Shown here: in pieces, positions 7,518-29,848 of the stretch
How positions within the stretch are numbered: position 1 is the first letter of the stretch
How the letters are laid out: each line of letters begins with the position of its first letter
Origin: Acutalibacteraceae bacterium
GTDB taxonomy: Bacteria; Bacillota; Clostridia; Oscillospirales; Acutalibacteraceae
Assembly (NCBI GenBank): GCA_051881555.1
Contig: JBJEQC010000236.1
Coordinates: 1 to 32,413 of the forward strand
Length of the DNA stretch: 32,413 bases
Direction: 5' to 3'
The notes under the pieces: generated by a model
Databases searched by the model: none
The model's input: the letters and a program-made list of their open reading frames with translations, nothing else
What the model was told of the DNA's origin: nothing
Position numbers and translations under genes: made by a program

Positions 7518-9052
7518 CGGTGGATTATTCAAAATTTAAAAGCGGCAGCGATATCAGGGGCTACGCTCTCGGCGACGAGTCGAACCCGCTCTATATGAGC
7601 GACGAAATGATTATGAGAGCCTCGGCGGCTTTTCTGAAATGGCTTGAATCAAGATGCGGAAAGACTTCTCCCCGCATCTCTGTCGGTCACGACAGCCGCC
7701 TTTCGGCAGAAAGAATCAAAAATGCGGTTATCAAGGCTCTGACCTCAAACGGCGCAGAGGTTGCTGACTGCGGGCTTTGCTCAACCCCTGCAATGTTTAT
7801 GACAACTGTTGACGCAGGCTGTGACGGAGCGGTTCAGATAACGGCAAGCCATCACCCGATGGACAGAAACGGGTTGAAATTTTTCACAAAAGACGGCGGA
7901 CTTGACGGCTCTGACATTGCCGATATCCTTGAAAACGCCGCAAAAATCGAAAATCCTGTCGGTGACAGAAGCGGAAAGTATTCAAAGCTTGATTTCATGG
8001 AGCGTTATTCCGAAATTCTCAGAAACATGATTATTGACGGCGTTAACAGCGACAACGAGCGTGAAAAGCCGCTTAAAGGCATGAAAATCGTTGTTGACGC
8101 AGGCAACGGAGTCGGCGGTTTTTATGCCTGCAAAGTTCTTGAACCGCTCGGAGCGGATATTACGGGCAGTCTTTATCTTGAACCTGACGGCAATTTTCCG
8201 CATCATGCCCCGAACCCTGAAAACGCCGAAGCAATGGCTTGCGTTTCACGGGCAACCGCTGAAGCAAATGCGGATTTCGGCGTTATCTTTGACACCGATG
8301 TTGACAGAGCCGCATGCGTCGGCAAGGGCGGATTTGAAATAAACCGCAACCGTCTTGTTGCTCTTGCTTCAAAAATTGCTCTCACCTCCTGCCCCGGCGG
8401 CACTATCGTCACCGACAGCGTAACCTCCGACGGTCTTGCCGAATTTATTAAGGCAAACGGCGGAACTCATCTCAGATTTAAAAGAGGTTACCGCAACGTT
8501 ATCAACAAACAGCTTGAGCTGACAAGAAGCGGCGTTAAATGCCCTCTTGCAATGGAGACCTCGGGTCATGCCGCCTTTGCCGATAATTATTTTCTTGACG
8601 ACGGCGCATATCTGATAACAAGGCTGATAATTGAAGCCGCCAACATGGTGAAAAAAGGCGAAACGCTCGAGCATCTTATCGCTGATTTGCGTGAACCGAA
8701 AGAAGAAAAGGAACTGAGATTCAAAATTCTTGACGAGAATTTCAGACCGCAGGGTGAGAAAATCATCTCTCTTTTTGAAGAAGAAGCGAAAAATCATGAG
8801 GGCTGGAACGCTTGCTCCGATAATTACGAGGGCATACGCATAAACGCCGATTCTTCCTGCGGAAACGGCTGGTTCCTGCTCCGCCTGAGCGTTCACGACC
8901 CGATTATCGTTCTCAACTCTGAAAGCGACGAAAAAGGCGGAATCTTTAAAATGTGTTCGGATATTCTCAATGTCATTTCCCGAGCGGATAACATTGAAAA
9001 AATCGATGTTTCATCTTTAAAAAATTATGTTGAAAAGGAGAAATCGGTATGA
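7514..9052 (+). CDS. Phosphomannomutase/phosphoglucomutase
   Basis: SGSDIRG, TASHHP (catalytic Ser), FDTDVDR (metal loop), ETSGH. Confidence 0.93.
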   Translation: MTVDYSKFKSGSDIRGYALGDESNPLYMSDEMIMRASAAFLKWLESRCGKTSPRISVGHDSRLSAERIKNAVIKALTSNGAEVADCGLCSTPAMFMTTVDAGCDGAVQITASHHPMDRNGLKFFTKDGGLDGSDIADILENAAKIENPVGDRSGKYSKLDFMERYSEILRNMIIDGVNSDNEREKPLKGMKIVVDAGNGVGGFYACKVLEPLGADITGSLYLEPDGNFPHHAPNPENAEAMACVSRATAEANADFGVIFDTDVDRAACVGKGGFEINRNRLVALASKIALTSCPGGTIVTDSVTSDGLAEFIKANGGTHLRFKRGYRNVINKQLELTRSGVKCPLAMETSGHAAFADNYFLDDGAYLITRLIIEAANMVKKGETLEHLIADLREPKEEKELRFKILDENFRPQGEKIISLFEEEAKNHEGWNACSDNYEGIRINADSSCGNGWFLLRLSVHDPIIVLNSESDEKGGIFKMCSDILNVISRADNIEKIDVSSLKNYVEKEKSV

Positions 9053-9942
9053 ATTCCATTATTTCGGCTGTTATGGCTGTTATTACTGCAATCATGTCAC
9101 TTTTCTACACTCCGTCGGAGCTGAAAAGCGTCAACCCCTCAGTTATTCCCGAGCCGTCAAAGACTCAGGATGTTACGGTTATGACATATAATGTCTATGT
9201 TGCAGGCTCAGGCGAGCATTCGCCCGAAAGCCGCACACCGCTTGTTATTGAAAACATCCGCAGATATATGCCCGATTCGTTCGGAATTGAAGAAGCCGAC
9301 GAGGGCTGGGTTGAGAGAATTGCCGAAGCCATGCCCGAATACGCCTATGTCGGCAAGGGCAGAAACTTCACGGGCGGCGGCGAAGCAAGCCCCGTATTTT
9401 ACAAAAAAGATAAATATGAGCTTGTTGATTCGGGCACCTTCTGGCTTTCAAAAACGCCCGAGAGACCCTCTCACGGCTGGGATGCCATGATGAACAGAGT
9501 TTGTTCCTATGCCGTTCTGAAAGACAAGGAAACAGGCTTTGTTTACGCTCATTTCAACGCTCATTTTGACCATATCGGAAAGATTGCACGCCTTGAATCC
9601 GTTTCGGTTGTTGCGGACATGATTTCAAAGATATGCCCCGGCATCCCCGTTGTATTCTCAGGCGACCTTAACGATGACGAGGGTTCGGACATGTATAACC
9701 GAATTCTTGAATGCGGAATGAGAGATACGAAATTCATTGCGGAAACCGCCGACAACTGCGGAACATATCACGGCTACAGCGAAGCGACCGAAAAGGTCAG
9801 AACAAAACCGATTGACTTCATTTTTGTTAACGCTTTTGCAACCAAGGTTGAAAGCTACACGGTTGACCGCACTCAGTTCAACGGAATGTATGCTTCTGAC
9901 CATCATCCCGTTATTGTTGAAATGACTCTGTTTAACGGATAA
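9049..9942 (+). CDS. Endonuclease/exonuclease/phosphatase (EEP) family protein, paralog 1
   Basis: MTYNV, GIEE, NAHFDH, SGDLN, IDFIF, SDHHPV; hydrophobic N-terminal leader. Confidence 0.9.
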   Translation: MNSIISAVMAVITAIMSLFYTPSELKSVNPSVIPEPSKTQDVTVMTYNVYVAGSGEHSPESRTPLVIENIRRYMPDSFGIEEADEGWVERIAEAMPEYAYVGKGRNFTGGGEASPVFYKKDKYELVDSGTFWLSKTPERPSHGWDAMMNRVCSYAVLKDKETGFVYAHFNAHFDHIGKIARLESVSVVADMISKICPGIPVVFSGDLNDDEGSDMYNRILECGMRDTKFIAETADNCGTYHGYSEATEKVRTKPIDFIFVNAFATKVESYTVDRTQFNGMYASDHHPVIVEMTLFNG

Positions 9943-9958
9943 AGGACGGTAAAATGCT

Positions 9959-10882
9959 ATGTATTCACTTTTATACAAGATTCTTTCGCCCTTAATTTCA
10001 TTAATTACGGCAATTTCAGCCGCATTTGCGCCTGCAACTTCGCTTCCGCTTGTTACCGTCAATCCAAACCCCATACCCGATGAAACAGTTTCTCAGAATA
10101 TTACCGTCATGACCTTCAATATCAAAAGCGGCGGTGATGACGAGCTTTCGCCCGAAAACCGAAAGCCTCTTGTTCGTGAAACGGTTATGAAATATACCGC
10201 CGATTCATTCGGAGTTCAGGAAGCGGACAAAGCATGGGTTGACCTGCTTGCCGACGCAATGCCCGAATATGCACATGTCGGCAAATTCAGGGATGACGGC
10301 GTTGAAACGGGAGAATCAAGCACGGTATTCTATCTCAAAGATAAATATGAGCTTGTCGATTCGGGAGACTTCTGGCTCTCCGAAACGCCCGATATCCCGT
10401 CAAAAGGCTGGGACGCACCCACTGAAAACAGAATCTGCACCTATGTTATTCTCAAAAACAAAGAAACAGGATTTACATATGCCCACTTCAACACCCACCT
10501 TGACAATGCGGGTGAGCAGGCACGGGCTGAATCCGTTCCGCTGATTGCAAGCAAAATTGCTCAGATTGCCCCCGATATTCCCGTTGTTCTGACGGGCGAC
10601 TTTAACTTCAACGAAACATCATATAACTACGCCAATATGCTCAGTTGCGGCATGAAAGACACAAAGTATCTTGCCGAAACCGCAGATTTCGGCCCGACTT
10701 ATCACGGATACAGAGCCGTTAACCTCGATATTCTTCCCATCGACTTTGTTTTTGTTAACGCCTATGTCAAGTCGGTCGATTACAGTAAAATCGATCGTTC
10801 AAAGGTAAACGGCATTTATCCGTCAGACCATTACCCCGTTATTGTTAACATGACTCTGTTTAATGCAGGAGGAGAAAAATGA
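9959..10882 (+). CDS. EEP family protein, paralog 2
   Basis: MTFNI, GVQE, NTHLD, TGDFN, IDFVF, SDHYPV; hydrophobic N-terminal leader. Confidence 0.9.
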   Translation: MYSLLYKILSPLISLITAISAAFAPATSLPLVTVNPNPIPDETVSQNITVMTFNIKSGGDDELSPENRKPLVRETVMKYTADSFGVQEADKAWVDLLADAMPEYAHVGKFRDDGVETGESSTVFYLKDKYELVDSGDFWLSETPDIPSKGWDAPTENRICTYVILKNKETGFTYAHFNTHLDNAGEQARAESVPLIASKIAQIAPDIPVVLTGDFNFNETSYNYANMLSCGMKDTKYLAETADFGPTYHGYRAVNLDILPIDFVFVNAYVKSVDYSKIDRSKVNGIYPSDHYPVIVNMTLFNAGGEK

Positions 10883-11640
10883 TGTTCAGAATTATGTCAT
10901 TCAATGTGCTTTGCTACGGCAGAGACGAGAGATTTTGGAAAAACCGCATCCCGCTTGCTTGCGAAATCATCCGCAAAAACGCTCCCGATTCATTCGGCGT
11001 TCAGGAAGCACACATCGGCTGGATGAACGCCCTGAAAGAAAATCTGCCCGAGTATGATTATGTCGGAGTCGGCAGAGACGACGGAAAAGAGGACGGAGAG
11101 TTCTCGGCGGTATTTTATAAGAAAGACCGTTTCACCGCAAGCGACAGCGGCAACTTCTGGATATCCGAAACGCCCGATATTCCCTCAAAAGGCTGGGACG
11201 CCGCCTGCATAAGAATCGCAACCTATGTTAAGCTGACCGATAAAGAAAGCGGAGAAGCCTATGTTCATTTCAACACTCATCTTGACCATGTCGGCGACAC
11301 AGCAAGAATTGAGGGCGTTAAGATGATAAAAGAAAAAGCCGCTTCGTTCGGCGGCGTTCCCGTTGTCTGCACGGGCGATTTCAATGTTACTCAAGGTTCG
11401 GAATGCTACAACACGATGATCAGCGGAAACATGGCGGATTCACGCTTTCTTGCTCCCGAAACCGACGACAGCCTGACCTATCACGGCTTCGACCCCGAAA
11501 ACGTAAAGCATATTATTGACTTTGTGTTTGTTGACAGAGACACGGTCAAGCCCTTGAAATTCAAGGTCATTGACGAAAAGGTTAACGGCGAATTCTATTC
11601 CGATCACTACGCCGTTTATGCCGACATTGAATTAAAATAA
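10879..11640 (+). CDS. EEP family protein, paralog 3 (no leader)
   Basis: MSFNV, GVQE, NTHLDH, TGDFN, IDFVF, SDHYAV. Confidence 0.9.
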   Translation: MMFRIMSFNVLCYGRDERFWKNRIPLACEIIRKNAPDSFGVQEAHIGWMNALKENLPEYDYVGVGRDDGKEDGEFSAVFYKKDRFTASDSGNFWISETPDIPSKGWDAACIRIATYVKLTDKESGEAYVHFNTHLDHVGDTARIEGVKMIKEKAASFGGVPVVCTGDFNVTQGSECYNTMISGNMADSRFLAPETDDSLTYHGFDPENVKHIIDFVFVDRDTVKPLKFKVIDEKVNGEFYSDHYAVYADIELK

Positions 11641-22164: not shown

Positions 22165-22180
22165 GGTGTTTCTCCCGTTA

Positions 22181-22241
22181 TAAAGGCTGTTTGTTTTCTT
22201 CAATATGTATTTCAGCGGATTTTCGTCGATGTATTGCCAGG
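22181..22241. repeat. 61-bp direct duplicate of the RAYT gene 3' end (22738-22798)
   Basis: TAAAGGCTGTTTGTTTTCTTCAAT(a/g)TGTATTTCAGCGGATTTTCGTCGATGTATTGCCAGG; 60/61 identical. Confidence 0.95.
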
Positions 22242-22732
22242 GCGGGGGCTTGCTCCCGCCGTTTATGATATACTCAAAATGTTGATATATATGGCTCTTC
22301 GGTAGGGAACGCCGTCCTCGGCGTTCCGTTGAATTTGATTCATTTTCACGGACAGCCGCAAGGGCTGTCCCTACGATTTGTTTTCAATTTGTAGCGGACG
22401 ATGCCCACATCGTCCAAAATGCAGAGTGTACGAATTTTGCAGGACACGGTAGGGCGGGGGCTTGCTCCCGCCGTTTTGAATTTTCGAAATATAGAAATTA
22501 TTCACCTGCGGCGAATCGGTTCGTCGGGGACGCCGAACCCTACGGATTTTTCGTGAATTTGTGCGTTTTCAGGCGGTCGACCGTAGGGGACGGGTTGCCC
22601 GTCCCGCATAAACCAAGCCGTTGTTTTTATGTTTTCCCGGAACGCTGAGGACAGCGTTCCCTACGAAAAATTGTTATATATCAACAATTCTGCGTAAATT
22701 AACGGCGGGCGACCACGCAGGGTCGCCCCTAC
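22239..22732. repeat. REP mosaic array 2 (9 GTAG-type palindromes) directly downstream of RAYT
   Basis: D+ truncated 22239-22261, A+ 22302-22328, G- 22349-22374, E+ 22391-22415, D+ 22449-22473, C- 22517-22543, B+ 22583-22606, A'- 22638-22664, H- 22706-22732. Confidence 0.93.
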
Positions 22733-22736
22733 AGTA

Positions 22737-23243
22737 TTAAAGGCTGTTTGTTTTCTTCAATGTGTATTTCAGCGGATTTTCGTCGATGTATTGCCAGGCT
22801 TCCTCATAGTCTTGATCACATCGGATAATATGCTCATAATATCCTCTTTGCCAAACATGTTTATCAAATGGCTCAAATCTTCCGGCCTTGACATTGCGGA
22901 TATAATCGTTTGTCGTCATCGTCTTGAACCATCCGATTATTTCCGGTAGGGGCGACCCCGTGTGGTCGCCCGATTCATCGCTGTAAAGTGAAACCAGCAG
23001 ATGGATATGATCCGGCATAACAACATATTTATCTATTTGAAGATTAGAATATTTCTTTTCCAACAAAAGCACCCATTTTTCAATCATTTTATCCGGGTCA
23101 TTCGGGCGACCACACAGGGTCGCCCCTACGGTTTCGCCGAATAATTTTGCACGGTTATGAGTGCAAATTGTTACATAATATATGTTGTTCTGAGAATAGT
23201 CATAATCTTTCAGCCTGATATTCTTTCTTTTCGGCAAATTCAT
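22737..23243 (-). CDS. rayT: REP-associated tyrosine transposase (RAYT/TnpA-REP, HUH Y1 family)
   Basis: RLKDYDYS...YYVTICTHNR..LFG, HUH motif VMPDHIH, WQRGYYEHIIR, catalytic YIDENP. Flanked by GTAG REPs; no tnpB and no IS ends seen. Confidence 0.92.
   Translation of the reverse strand: MNLPKRKNIRLKDYDYSQNNIYYVTICTHNRAKLFGETVGATLCGRPNDPDKMIEKWVLLLEKKYSNLQIDKYVVMPDHIHLLVSLYSDESGDHTGSPLPEIIGWFKTMTTNDYIRNVKAGRFEPFDKHVWQRGYYEHIIRCDQDYEEAWQYIDENPLKYTLKKTNSL
22946..22972 (+). repeat. REP family H inside the RAYT CDS
   Basis: GTAGGGGCGACCCCGTGTGGTCGCCCG; encodes SGDHTGSPL on the - strand. Confidence 0.92.
23103..23129 (-). repeat. REP family H inside the RAYT CDS
   Basis: GTAGGGGCGACCCTGTGTGGTCGCCCG on the - strand; encodes VGATLCGRP. 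Confidence 0.92.
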
Positions 23244-23683
23244 TATGCTCTGCCGGTTGAGCCGAAGCCGCCCTCTCCCCTCTCTGTTTCGTCGAGCGAA
23301 TCCGCTTCAACGGGAGAAATGAGCGAAACGGGCATAATAACAAGCTGTGCAATGCGTTCGTCGGGATTAATTGTATAAGGCTCTTTGAGCTGATTTATTA
23401 CGCCGACGCAGATTTCGCCTCTGTAGTCGCTGTCGATAACGCCGACGCCGTTGAGCAGACCGATGCCGTGCTTTATCGCAAGCCCGCTTCTCGCAAACAC
23501 AAACGCCGCAAGCTCTGCGCTCGGCAGTTCAATGGCGATACCCGTCGGAATAACCGCCTTTTCGCCGCCGCTGAGAGTGATTGGTTCGTCAATGCAGGCA
23601 TAAAGATCCATGCCTGCGCTGCCGGGGGTCGCTCTGAACGGTATCTTTGCATTTTCCTTTAATTTTTTTATCTTAAATTCCAT
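23243..23683 (-). CDS. dut: dUTP diphosphatase (trimeric dUTPase)
   Basis: GSAGMDL, ARSGLA, GVIDSDYRGE, RIAQL, RGEGGFGSTG; start MEFKIKK at 23683. Confidence 0.96.
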   Translation of the reverse strand: MEFKIKKLKENAKIPFRATPGSAGMDLYACIDEPITLSGGEKAVIPTGIAIELPSAELAAFVFARSGLAIKHGIGLLNGVGVIDSDYRGEICVGVINQLKEPYTINPDERIAQLVIMPVSLISPVEADSLDETERGEGGFGSTGRA

Positions 23684-26676: not shown

Positions 26677-27458
26677 CCTTGTCCTTGAGGATAAGGTATC
26701 TCGTAGTGACGGATGAGGTGCGGAACGCCGGCGTTTCTTTTTGTTTGATGTGTTTTCACGGACAGCCGCAAGGCTACGGTTTGTTTTTCAATTTGTAGGG
26801 GACGATGCCCACATCGTCCCAAGGAAAAACATTTCATTATTCGCCTGTGGCGAATCGGAACGCTGAGGACAGCGTTCCCTACCGAAAAAGCCATAAATTT
26901 CAATGATTCTGCGTGAACAAAAAAACGACGGGAGCAAGCCCCCGCCCTACCCGTTCAGGAAACATTTTGCGGAGCAATTACAATCGGTCATAGGCGGAGC
27001 CTATCCATAATTTGCGAAGCAAACATCACTTTTGCGAAACACGGGCGACCACGCAGGGTCGCCCCTACCGGAATGTGCCGCAGGCACACTTCATTTCTTC
27101 ATTTTTTCAAGCGGGCGAACACAGTTCGCCCCTACCGTGTTGCCAATGATTTCTGCTATTTTCACGGAACAGCCGGATTATTCAGATTTAATAACAGGTT
27201 AGGTAGGGAACGCCGTCCTCGGCGTTCCGTGGGATTTGATATGTTTTCACGGACAACCGCAAGGGTTGTCCCTACGATTTTTTATTGAATTGATAATTTG
27301 TAGCGGACGATGCCCACATCATCCAAATGTAGAAATAATAAATTTTGCTGTATTCAAGGTAGGGCGGGGGCTTGCTCCCGCCGTTTTGAATTTATTATAA
27401 TATTTACCCAAATTATTCGCCTGTGGCGAATCGGAACGCTGAGGACAGCGTTCCCTAC
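26677..27458. repeat. REP mosaic array 3 (11 GTAG-type palindromes plus other hairpins)
   Basis: GGATGAGG-type element 26677-26718; G- (internally deleted) 26759-26777, E+ 26795-26820, A'- 26856-26882, D- 26926-26950, H- 27042-27068, F- 27112-27135, A+ 27203-27229, G'- 27250-27275, E+ 27300-27324, D+ 27359-27383, A'- 27432-27458. Confidence 0.92.
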
Positions 27459-27506: not shown

Positions 27507-27600
27507 AATCATTTTTATTTCCGAAACAATCAATTATTTATTTCCGAAATAAACAAATTATTATATTCCGGAAACAATTGAATTATTTTATTGCCGAAGC
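27507..27600. repeat. Four degenerate ~23-25 bp tandem units overlapping the gene's stop codon
   Basis: Approximate unit AATYAATTATTTWTTYCCGAAAC; the last copy is the coding end (ASAIK*). Confidence 0.65.
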
Positions 27601-29676
27601 GATGCTGTTGAACACTCCGACAAACCATTTGCCGATTGAAACGGGAGCTTCAGTCAGCCAGATTTTGCAGCTGTTAACGAAAGCCTTGAGCCATCTGCCG
27701 ATTGAGCAGAAGATGCATGTGCATTCCGTTTCTTCGGGTCCTCCGATGGTTGCGGGATCGTCTGAGCCGCAGTTTACGCATCTTCCGTCCTTGTAGCTGT
27801 GACCCGTTGCGGGAACCTCGCTGTCAACATAGCTGTCGCCGCAGTTTGCGCAGGTGTGGGTTGTGTAACCCGATTCGGTGCAGGTCGGAGGAGTAACAAC
27901 GCTGTCATAATCGTGACCGCTTGCGGTAATAACCGTATCTTCAAGTGTTATTTCGGTTGTCGCTTTTTCATCTTCAAAGATTCTGTTGCAGACGGCGCAG
28001 GTGTAGTATTCGATATTGCCGTCCTCGGTGCAGGTTGCTTCTTTGCGGTCGGTTTTATCAAGGCTGTGACCGTTTGCGGTAATAACCACATCTTCAGCGG
28101 TTAATTCGGTTGTCCCCTCTTCATCTGCAAAGAGCTTGTCGCAGACGGAGCATTTCCAATGTGCAATATTTCCGTCCTCGGTGCAGGTCGGTTCGTTGCG
28201 TTCAACCTTTTCAAGGCTGTGGCTTGTGGAAATAACCACATCCTCAAGTGTTAATTCGGTTGTTGCTTCTTCATCTGCAAAGAGCTTGTCGCAGACGGAG
28301 CATTTCCAATGTGCAATATTTCCGTCCTCGGTGCAAGTTGCTTCTTTGCGTTCGACATATTCAAGGCTGTGGCTTGCGGGAATAACCACATCTTCAGCGG
28401 TTAATTCGGTTTCCCCTTCTTCATCTGCAAAGAGCTTTTTGCAGACATTGCATTGGTAATGAGCAATATTTCCGTCCTCGGTGCAGGTCGGTTCTTTTGC
28501 TTCAACAGCCTTGATTGAGTGCGAATAGCACAAAATTCTGCCGTAATTAATTACCTCGCCGATGATTTTGTTATCTGTGTCACTGCTGATAATCAGAGTT
28601 CCGTCTTCGCCGACGGTTATTGTCTCGTTTGCATTGTTTTTCTGGAAACGGTTTATTGTTACCGTGCCGCCGTTAATCTCAATGGGAGCAGTTGCCGCAT
28701 AATCGGGATCTCCCGAGCCGACACCCGTTGCGCCCGAGCCGAGAGCGTTGCCGTTGCGTTTGTTGCTTCCGTTGATATCGCAACCGCCGGTTGCATTAAC
28801 CGTGCCGCCGTTGATGATGATGCTGTCGCTCGAACCGCCGGGGACTTTGTTGTATTTTCCGCCGCCTCCGCCGATTCCGGCTCCGCCGCCGCCCCAATAG
28901 CCTTTGTTGTCGCCGCCGACGGCATTTATAACGCCGCCGTTAACCGTTACTTTTCCCGACGCTTCGGCATTTGAACTACTACCGTTTGCCCAAGCTCCGT
29001 CGCCGCCGATTCCGGCTCCGCCGCCTGCCCATGCATTAGCTGCACTTATATTATGTCCGTTAGCTCCGTAAGCGTTCAATATGCCGTCGCTGCCGTTGAT
29101 GATAAGCTCCGCTCCGGCAGGAACGCCGATAGCCGCTCTGCCGCTTCCGCAGCGCAGACGGGTATCGTTCTCAAAAGTATCGGAATCGTAATAACCCTCG
29201 GCAGAAGCCAGAGTGTTAACGCTGCCGTCAACAAGATAAACGGTTACCTTGTAAGGACCGTTGATGTTGAACGGATTGGGCTTGCTGTAATCGCCCGTGT
29301 TGCTCGGAGAGGGAACAAGAATGTTCACGCCGTCGAGGTAAATAGTGCAGTTGCAGTTGACGGTTATCGTGTTTGAGGTTACACTGCCTGAGGCTGAATA
29401 ATAGGGGGAATCCGGAATGAAATAGGGTTCCTCGTCCGGCAAAGGCGCTTCCATCGTAGTTTCCCAAACCACGCTGCTCGACTCTTCGACTATGGTGCTC
29501 GACTCTTTGATGTCCGACTGATAAATGCGGTAAGTTCCTTCGGCGTCAATCGTAACAAAGCCTGCGTTCAGATTGTATTCCGCATCATAATCAACCGCCA
29601 GAACGGTTACCGGCAGAATGCTCAGAAGCATAAATAACGCCGGGATAAGATAATAAAGTTTCTTTGAAATTTTCAT
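27583..29676 (-). CDS. Secreted/surface protein: Gly-rich GAGIGG beta-helix-like region plus Cys/His repeats
   Basis: Signal peptide MKISKK...VLA after GGAGG; repeated GGAGIGG and ITINGG.V.A.G motifs; four PTCTEDGN..CxxC repeats plus a PTCTESGY repeat. Confidence 0.85.
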   Translation of the reverse strand: MKISKKLYYLIPALFMLLSILPVTVLAVDYDAEYNLNAGFVTIDAEGTYRIYQSDIKESSTIVEESSSVVWETTMEAPLPDEEPYFIPDSPYYSASGSVTSNTITVNCNCTIYLDGVNILVPSPSNTGDYSKPNPFNINGPYKVTVYLVDGSVNTLASAEGYYDSDTFENDTRLRCGSGRAAIGVPAGAELIINGSDGILNAYGANGHNISAANAWAGGGAGIGGDGAWANGSSSNAEASGKVTVNGGVINAVGGDNKGYWGGGGAGIGGGGGKYNKVPGGSSDSIIINGGTVNATGGCDINGSNKRNGNALGSGATGVGSGDPDYAATAPIEINGGTVTINRFQKNNANETITVGEDGTLIISSDTDNKIIGEVINYGRILCYSHSIKAVEAKEPTCTEDGNIAHYQCNVCKKLFADEEGETELTAEDVVIPASHSLEYVERKEATCTEDGNIAHWKCSVCDKLFADEEATTELTLEDVVISTSHSLEKVERNEPTCTEDGNIAHWKCSVCDKLFADEEGTTELTAEDVVITANGHSLDKTDRKEATCTEDGNIEYYTCAVCNRIFEDEKATTEITLEDTVITASGHDYDSVVTPPTCTESGYTTHTCANCGDSYVDSEVPATGHSYKDGRCVNCGSDDPATIGGPEETECTCIFCSIGRWLKAFVNSCKIWLTEAPVSIGKWFVGVFNSIASAIK
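27920..28522 (-). repeat. Intragenic tandem repeat, 4 x ~150 bp (50 aa)
   Basis: CCGTCCTCGGTGCA recurs at 28019, 28172, 28322 and 28472 (period 153, 150, 150). Confidence 0.92.
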
Positions 29677-29706
29677 CACTGTGCCTCCTGTATTCAAGAT
29701 AAAAAA

Positions 29707-29735
29707 ATTGTACCATATACTGTAAAAAAATGCAA
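29707..29735 (-). promoter_or_regulatory. Putative sigma-A promoter of the surface-protein gene
   Basis: TTGCAT-17 bp-TACAAT with an extended TG. Confidence 0.6.
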
Positions 29736-29848
29736 TATTTTTATCGAGATTTATAATTTTTAACATTTCATTTTTTAGTTGCGGAAAGGTTTAACAGGAG
29801 GAGAAAAAAAGAAGTTTCATTGCTCCGCAAAATGGTTGTATTTTTAGC

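Follow-up and report, generated by a model that had tools for sequence, protein, structure and literature searches.

An inverted pair of likely cognate REPs carried in frame within a clostridial RAYT gene

The RAYT (tnpA-REP) gene P0001 of an Acutalibacteraceae bacterium contains, in frame, two mutually inverted hairpins that belong to the REP family on which its enzyme likely acts and that are conserved as DNA. Comparison with related genes supports the view that this pair is likely an embedded BIME and that the enzyme processes its own locus. P0001 lies in a stretch of 32,413 nucleotides (GenBank assembly GCA_051881555.1, contig JBJEQC010000236.1), analysed as a whole and hereafter called the window. 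In-frame REPs within tnpA-REP genes were already described in 2018 (PMC6006769); the RAYT-REP pair reported here extends that feature and makes the reason for the linkage between enzyme and REP testable.

The RAYT gene and its internal REPs

P0001 encodes a Y1/HUH transposase of the RAYT type. The HUH motif is H79-I80-H81 and the putative catalytic residue is Y152; H79, H81 and Y152 do not vary across the 45 rows of an alignment of its relatives. The match to Y1_Tnp (PF01797) reaches 36 bits, above the cut-off of 23, and the IS200 model gives only 31 bits. With NF047646, the NCBIfam RAYT model, the score is 78.6 bits (E 4e-22) for a curated cut-off of 80; since three relatives also reach just 61–77 bits, this model appears to under-score the clade. 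An AlphaFold model built from the 45-row alignment (mean pLDDT 88) matches 4ER8 (Foldseek E 6e-7) and IS200/605 TnpA folds. The nearest named relatives of P0001 are found in Clostridia. RAYTs have a patchy distribution, being present in 64 of the 132 genomes of the genus, and this genome holds four RAYT paralogs whose identity to P0001 is 33–42 %.

The start codon of P0001 overlaps the stop codon of dut (TAATG). No sigma-70-like site was found upstream of the gene on its strand in a promoter scan that is uninformative, with a total of 6 sites against 3.6 expected by chance. One RNA run yielded a single 223-nt contig on the gene at a depth of about 4, from a type of library that can also hold DNA.

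Table 1. Features of the P0001 locus and related elements in the window
Feature	Position	Strand	Basis or remark
Relic of RAYT 3' end	22172..22241	(-)	93 % over 70 nt to 22729-22798
Mixed-family REP array, about nine units, several families including H	22240..22732	.	Repeat search
Flanking H copy, first array unit, 4 bp past the P0001 stop codon	22706..22732	(-)	Repeat match
RAYT / tnpA-REP gene (P0001), 168 aa	22737..23243	(-)	ORF, profile matches, alignment
Internal REP2, family H, template strand (iREP on sense strand)	22946..22972	(+)	Codons 91-99, SGDHTGSPL; predicted loop after HUH strand
Core between REP1 and REP2, 130 bp	22973..23102	(-)	Encodes VMPDHIH; HUH codons 23001-23009
Internal REP1, family H, sense strand	23103..23129	(-)	Codons 39-47, VGATLCGRP; predicted beta1-alphaA loop
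dut (dUTPase)	23243..23680	(-)	Upstream anchor of RAYT locus
Fourth H copy, in a separate mixed array	27042..27068	(-)	Repeat match

REP1 and REP2 are GTAG-footed hairpins of 27 nt, mutually inverted, 130 bp apart and identical at 26 of the 27 positions (Table 1). A sequence-only reading of the window had described this in-frame inverted pair around a spacer encoding VMPDHIH, and its description is exact; the two further H copies that it had placed just after the stop codon and in another array are present as well. It had also raised the possibility that the REP-coded segments are surface loops. The AlphaFold model puts both of them in loops, the REP1 peptide between the first strand and helix A, the REP2 peptide between the HUH strand and the next helix.

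The pair is not due to chance: H has 35 copies genome-wide (at most 5 mismatches). The three other RAYT paralogs in this genome also bear an inverted pair at the same two loops, each from a different family. The presence of REPs inside the RAYT gene is common to the whole clade and not peculiar to P0001. Most extragenic H copies of the genome share the conserved flanks of a longer repeated element, and a related element stands after the REP1 break in L314 and L316, two broken orthologs of the window gene.

Family H, as had been proposed from the window alone, is likely the cognate REP family of P0001. In a tree of 123 clostridial proteins from which the REP-coded residues had been removed, REP family tracks RAYT clade, and each clade has its own REP family at both loops. 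Similarly, a different abundant family is found inside each of the four paralogs of this genome, three of which have no flanking REP. Only the internal copies can be called family-specific, because the array adjoining P0001 mixes several families. The exact H pattern occurs in 13 of the 132 genus genomes, including all those with an H-type gene, whether intact (4/4) or broken (2/2); in the remaining 7, which are incomplete assemblies, no H-type gene was found. The internal REP would thus label each enzyme with its likely target and provide dozens of enzyme-hairpin pairs for specificity studies. In addition, four abundant REP families (33–42 copies each) have no matching RAYT in this assembly, and RAYTs of relatives carry inside them at least three of these four orphaned REP types.

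In-frame REPs have been presented as a unique mark of TnpA-Y1 subclass 2.4 (RAYT group 4), generally located between HUH and Y and deemed peripheral (Quentin, Siguier, Chandler, Fichant 2018, PMC6006769). P0001 resembles this subclass in having in-frame REPs, one of them inserted between HUH and Y (residues 91–99) in the loop after the HUH strand, and in its WQ and YIxxNP motifs; next to the published NH[IFV]H, WQ and YIxNNP, the motifs of P0001 (DHIH, WQ and YIDENP) are close, not exact. Its REPs are likewise of the long GTAG-GGG kind with a stem starting with three G-C pairs, H being near-identical to types given in Table S1 of the same paper, and the double-foot REPs that arise by central deletion of an inverted dimer have counterparts here in L104 and L377. 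Two features differ. The accessible description of subclass 2.4 lists no beta1-alphaA insert, whereas P0001 has one REP before HUH; this split layout, with one REP before and one after HUH, is restricted to Bacillota in 15 of 15 named records. Moreover, the distance from HUH to Y has a median of about 88 in subclass 2.4 but is 73 in P0001. Its median is 66 in split-doublet genes and 93 in genes with both REPs after HUH, and as P0001 nests with the latter (FastTree support 98, REP-coded residues removed), the short distance looks like a consequence of the layout. A literature search, with subscription journals outside its scope, found no report of the split layout, of one REP per strand as a rule, of core-deleted alleles or of locus replacement; Figure S10 of PMC6006769 may show upstream inserts.

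Conservation of hairpin DNA and of one REP per strand

Within the clade it is the DNA of the REPs and not the encoded peptide that is conserved, and the sequence-only reading had likewise made the palindrome rather than the peptide the thing that homologs should keep. In 18 within-clade gene pairs, which were chosen by the author, fourfold degenerate third positions are identical at 171 of 181 sites inside REPs versus 206 of 454 outside. A comparison of P0001 with 14 H-family genes gives 162/174 inside and 78/255 outside. In addition, the reading frame of the REP varies among 115 split doublets (107/8 at site 1, 83/31/1 at site 2) and the peptides coded at one and the same site are unrelated to each other. 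REP1 and REP2 have a similarity of 0.937 within the same gene versus 0.596 between genes (94 distinct pairs, independently detected). Across 96 distinct pairs, the stem differences between the two comprise 29 paired and 11 one-sided changes, a count in which detection favours intact stems; this indicates that the hairpins are maintained one by one and not as a long duplex. Conservation at synonymous sites extends to genes with no outside REP copy in the assembly, and in G093 the internal pair represents the sole two exact copies of its family in the assembly.

The second regularity concerns orientation. The counts cover non-identical, intact genes flanked on either side by 250 bp or more (264 intact genes came from L001–L306) and exclude broken genes, duplicates and loci with short flanks; REP partners in genus loci were sought by gapped matching in the gene ± 350 bp. 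The cognate REP was found in both orientations, in the gene or within 350 bp, in 108 of 109 genus loci and in 32 of 34 new loci from other genera of the order, giving 151/154 for the pooled intact clostridial loci; these locus counts include kin and are not independent. When a gene has a single internal orientation, the missing one lies in the flank in 36 of 37 cases (pooled), and in the genus the nearest flanking copy is the missing one in 29/29. The flanking substitute can be upstream or downstream of the gene, at no set place but within about 200 bp of it. Where both orientations are internal, a flanking copy is mostly absent (91/103 pooled, 64/70 in the genus). Exceptions are L345, with three internal copies of one orientation, and L358, where none was found; L274 was scored as an automatic miss, but inspection by eye revealed a degenerate copy downstream. 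Layout can also be odd in other ways, with a reversed pair after HUH in L327 and an extra internal copy in L336.

To correct for kinship an independent-pairs test was applied. On well-supported branches it had just 3 and 4 pairs, which go the predicted way (1.8 against 0.0 and 3.8 against 0.0) but with which 0.05 is unreachable; on all branches 14 and 15 pairs were obtained, and the cross-controls were flat. The one-per-strand rule is weaker outside Clostridia. Both orientations were present in 53/67 and 40/54 loci of cross-phylum sets, and the nearest flanking copy was complementary in only 10/16 metagenome loci, figures that partly reflect detection misses.

Could such pairs merely be a habit of these repeats? 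For family H, 3 of 18 non-edge copies are in same-family inverted pairs, which is as many as the RAYT locus holds, and none of these 18 forms an H/H doublet away from that locus. For other families of the genome the same count gives 0/24, 0/24, 1/24, 1/23, 2/34 and 6/30, and one abundant family has same-family inverted partners for 30 of 58 copies. Since such pairs are rare in seven of eight families, one REP per strand is not a general habit of the repeats. The pair can shift between gene and flank, but loss of the copy on either strand is very rare, which makes the linkage look like something required in cis rather than inherited from an ancestor by default. We consider it very probable that there is selection in cis for a cognate REP on each of the two strands, and the clade can be regarded as a natural experiment on RAYT-REP linkage.

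Deleted cores, replaced genes and mixed arrays

A tblastn screen gave 48 partial or irregular loci, 23 of which were read by eye. The HUH core was lost in 11 loci, which hold RAYT genes of the clade other than P0001, through nine junction types. Both ends of the deletion fall in the REPs or within about 25 nt of them in L303/L304/L310 (a shared junction), L305, L309, L315, L317, L371, L377 and L104. In L312 the distance is up to about 40 nt. A double-foot REP remains in L377 and L104. Furthermore, L313 shows a collapse between REP1 and its flanking partner, and in L314 and L316 the break lies within REP1. Assembly error is unlikely, as one junction is common to three genomes and has drifted further. 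Excision of the core, which the sequence-only reading had envisaged, is therefore borne out by alleles in relatives whose junctions end at the REPs. However, most junctions have short microhomology or reflect stem collapse rather than two C|T ends, and replication slippage can account for them without enzyme action. The pair thus often ends in the loss of the active-site codons, yet relatives keep one hairpin per strand.

Inversion of the core, envisaged along with excision, has found no backing: there is no inverted core in the 48 loci, and no core-inverting or core-skipping joint among the joints listed for four runs. The latter is a weak test and no proof of absence, since these were contigs only, which drop rare variants, of strains near the window with a word share of up to 0.21. 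Exchange of a REP-bounded core, also part of that proposal, is not supported either: in swaps between RAYT types the crossovers are located near the 5' and 3' ends of the coding sequence, which are conserved. On these breakpoint positions, cassette exchange between REPs is rejected.

At fixed loci one RAYT can take the place of another, and the crossovers lie in the conserved ends of the gene, not at the REPs. Clustering of flanks revealed several syntenic loci with RAYTs of different clades in different species. At the dut locus, H-type genes alternate between species with RAYTs of another REP family. The last 66 nt of P0001 are 98 % identical to L283, an other-family RAYT at this locus that has the same transglutaminase-like gene downstream. 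At a second locus, L085 and L090 differ in REP family, yet the 298 nt that start at their Y-DHIIR codons show 96 % identity. Breakpoints of the chimeras lie near the Y-DHIIR and WQYIDENP codons or at the 5' end, far from the REPs. A C|T at the crossover is compatible with the data at the dut locus and not evident at the second locus.

The region downstream of P0001 contains a relic of the RAYT 3' end (Table 1). A C|T (22240/22239) marks its junction with a truncated REP of another family, which meets it with its CTAC foot; the matching C|T in P0001 is at 22797/22796. Relic and gene end form a direct duplication around the mixed REP array, and the reading frame of the relic continues into the transglutaminase-like ORF downstream. 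L314 has a comparable relic after its array. At the relic junction an iREP C|T is joined to a linker-type C|T, which matches the iREP-to-linker joining by the E. coli enzyme in vitro (PMC3333891), here as a single event.

The arrays at 253-760, 22240-22732 and 26795-27458 share blocks of order and of spacer sequence, which suggests that multi-family REP cassettes are copied as units. Most REPs in the genome have an inverted neighbour of another family.

Why the pair might be kept

In E. coli the functional unit is the BIME, in which each strand presents a REP for binding together with an iREP or linker site for cleavage (PMC3333891); C|T cleavage and an inactive iREP are described for the same system (PMC8266576). 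The E. coli REPtron (TnpA-REP, PDB 4ER8; Ton-Hoang 2012, PMC3333891; Corneloup 2021, PMC8266576) and P0001 have in common the Y1/HUH fold, the GTAG foot, an inverted pair providing REP plus iREP per strand, and a C|T junction at the iREP foot. In contrast, E. coli BIMEs flank a gene that resides at one locus, whereas here the pair is intragenic, the number of paralogs per genome ranges from none to several, their families differ, and the occupant of a locus can change. With the REPINs of Pseudomonas and their group 3 RAYTs (Bertels and Rainey 2011, PMC3116915, PMC3337134), P0001 shares an inverted doublet as conserved unit, one REP family per RAYT, and excision that leaves a short or double-foot palindrome. 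The P0001 doublet, two inverted REPs and a spacer, should be able to fold back according to the predicted fold. However, REPINs are extragenic and numerous, whereas same-family doublets are here largely in RAYT genes, with other copies in mixed-family arrays; the P0001 pair is intragenic with a single-copy spacer and is not a member of a REPIN population. It likely works like a BIME and excises like a REPIN.

An IS200/IS605 element would have near-identical copies with subterminal hairpin ends, but the paralogs are no closer than stated above and most genes with two internal REPs lack a flanking copy. RAYTs are recognized by linked GTAG-footed REPs repeated through the genome, as is the case for H, whose family tracks the clade. 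Intragenic REPs or RPEs are also known from unrelated genes, where palindromes are translated in frame in tolerant regions (Di Nocera 2013, PMC3733652); those are sporadic and in host genes, whereas the ones described here are fixed, paired and in the enzyme's own gene.

By analogy with E. coli biochemistry, the pair probably makes the locus a substrate that the enzyme binds and nicks on either strand: on each single strand, binding would take place at a REP and cleavage at an iREP or at a linker C|T. Nicking and strand transfer might then occasionally release gene-sized single strands, which could recombine into resident RAYT loci via the conserved coding ends, and only genes keeping the pair would persist. 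The two loops would merely be where the fold tolerates inserts, and core loss would be the cost, incurred through slippage across the 27-bp stem or through the enzyme itself. Capture of tnpA-REP through BIME processing at a distance has been proposed (PMC3333891). In view of the patchy distribution (64/132), the large number of broken alleles and the turnover of RAYTs at fixed loci, we tentatively favour propagation as the reason for selection of the pair, while granting that it may well not be. Against it, clades tied to one locus seem to have been passed on vertically for a long time, a pattern more in keeping with steady selection at host level than with rare movement; crossovers in conserved codons need homologous recombination only; most deletion junctions lack two C|T ends; the C|T relic is a single event; and group 4 RAYTs are treated as non-duplicating (10.1101/2021.07.10.451892). 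A bolder formulation is that clostridial subclass-2.4 RAYT genes are autonomous self-substrate elements that, by means of the embedded cognate BIME, copy out their own gene and displace other RAYTs from fixed loci of the chromosome, the pair being also a fuse that deletes the HUH core. This we regard as doubtful. If true, it is the element that would be under selection to maintain RAYT-REP linkage, at odds with the picture of domesticated, immobile group 4 RAYTs.

A possible alternative to propagation, though one we think improbable on balance, is autoregulation at the DNA level. The enzyme would bind the extruded hairpins, one per strand, in or beside its own gene and throttle transcription, or nick the locus when over-expressed, and the host would select the pair since an unthrottled nuclease is costly. 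Such control explains steady purifying selection in vertically inherited clades, which it fits better than propagation does, and it agrees with the free REP position within about 200 bp of the gene and with G093, where the family's only exact copies are the internal pair. A brake inside the gene would also be useful given the overlap with dut and the lack of a sigma-70-like site in the upstream scan. However, the need for both strands is then not obvious, and RAYT replacement at fixed loci is left unexplained.

The requirement for one copy per orientation would follow naturally if control took place at the RNA level, with REP1 and iREP2 pairing in the mRNA. The resulting 27-bp stem would reduce translation or be cleaved by a double-strand RNase, and an inverted partner anywhere in the transcript would suffice. 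Folding with DNA parameters predicts the long stem as the minimum-energy structure for each of the two strands (-52 and -49 kcal/mol). Nevertheless, paired differences, which leave the hairpins intact and break the long duplex, outnumber the one-sided ones, with the detection bias noted above, and flanking partners would enclose very different portions of the transcript. We therefore hold this explanation to be unlikely.

Alternatively, REPs might land near the enzyme gene, survive only in loops and be homogenised by conversion from the genomic pool, as neutral tolerated insertions. Template switching in palindromes can yield paired changes without selection. Prediction places both sites in loops, one or both inserts are missing from many genes that look intact, and the inserts were judged peripheral and of little impact (PMC6006769). 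But neutrality predicts neither one copy per orientation nor the complementary flanking copy (36/37), synonymous sites are conserved even where the assembly offers no outside copy, and the pair is costly, as seen from the core deletions. This makes neutrality quite unlikely. It is very unlikely that the REP-bounded core is a cassette inverting as a switch or exchanged between paralogs: the core is excised at REPs in nature and a few genes have two related but different REP variants, but inverted cores are missing from the 48 loci and chimera breakpoints are far from the REPs. Finally, functional REP-coded peptides, for instance in hairpin recognition, are hardly credible: they co-vary with REP family by construction and frame 0 dominates at site 1, but frames differ, peptides at the same site are unrelated, synonymous sites are conserved, many genes lack the inserts and published models put the loops far from DNA (PMC6006769).

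Two well-populated RAYT loci adjoin genes of the dUTPase superfamily, dut in the present case and a dCTP deaminase gene at the other (L268:1758-2294), where the RAYT is upstream of the gene in some species and downstream in others. Elsewhere in the window, positions 9049-11640 encode three tandem Exo_endo_phos (PF03372) paralogs. A 727-aa protein (27583-29766) has Gly-rich repeats and four 150-nt Cys-rich tandem repeats, and its Pfam matches are just weak and zinc-finger-like.
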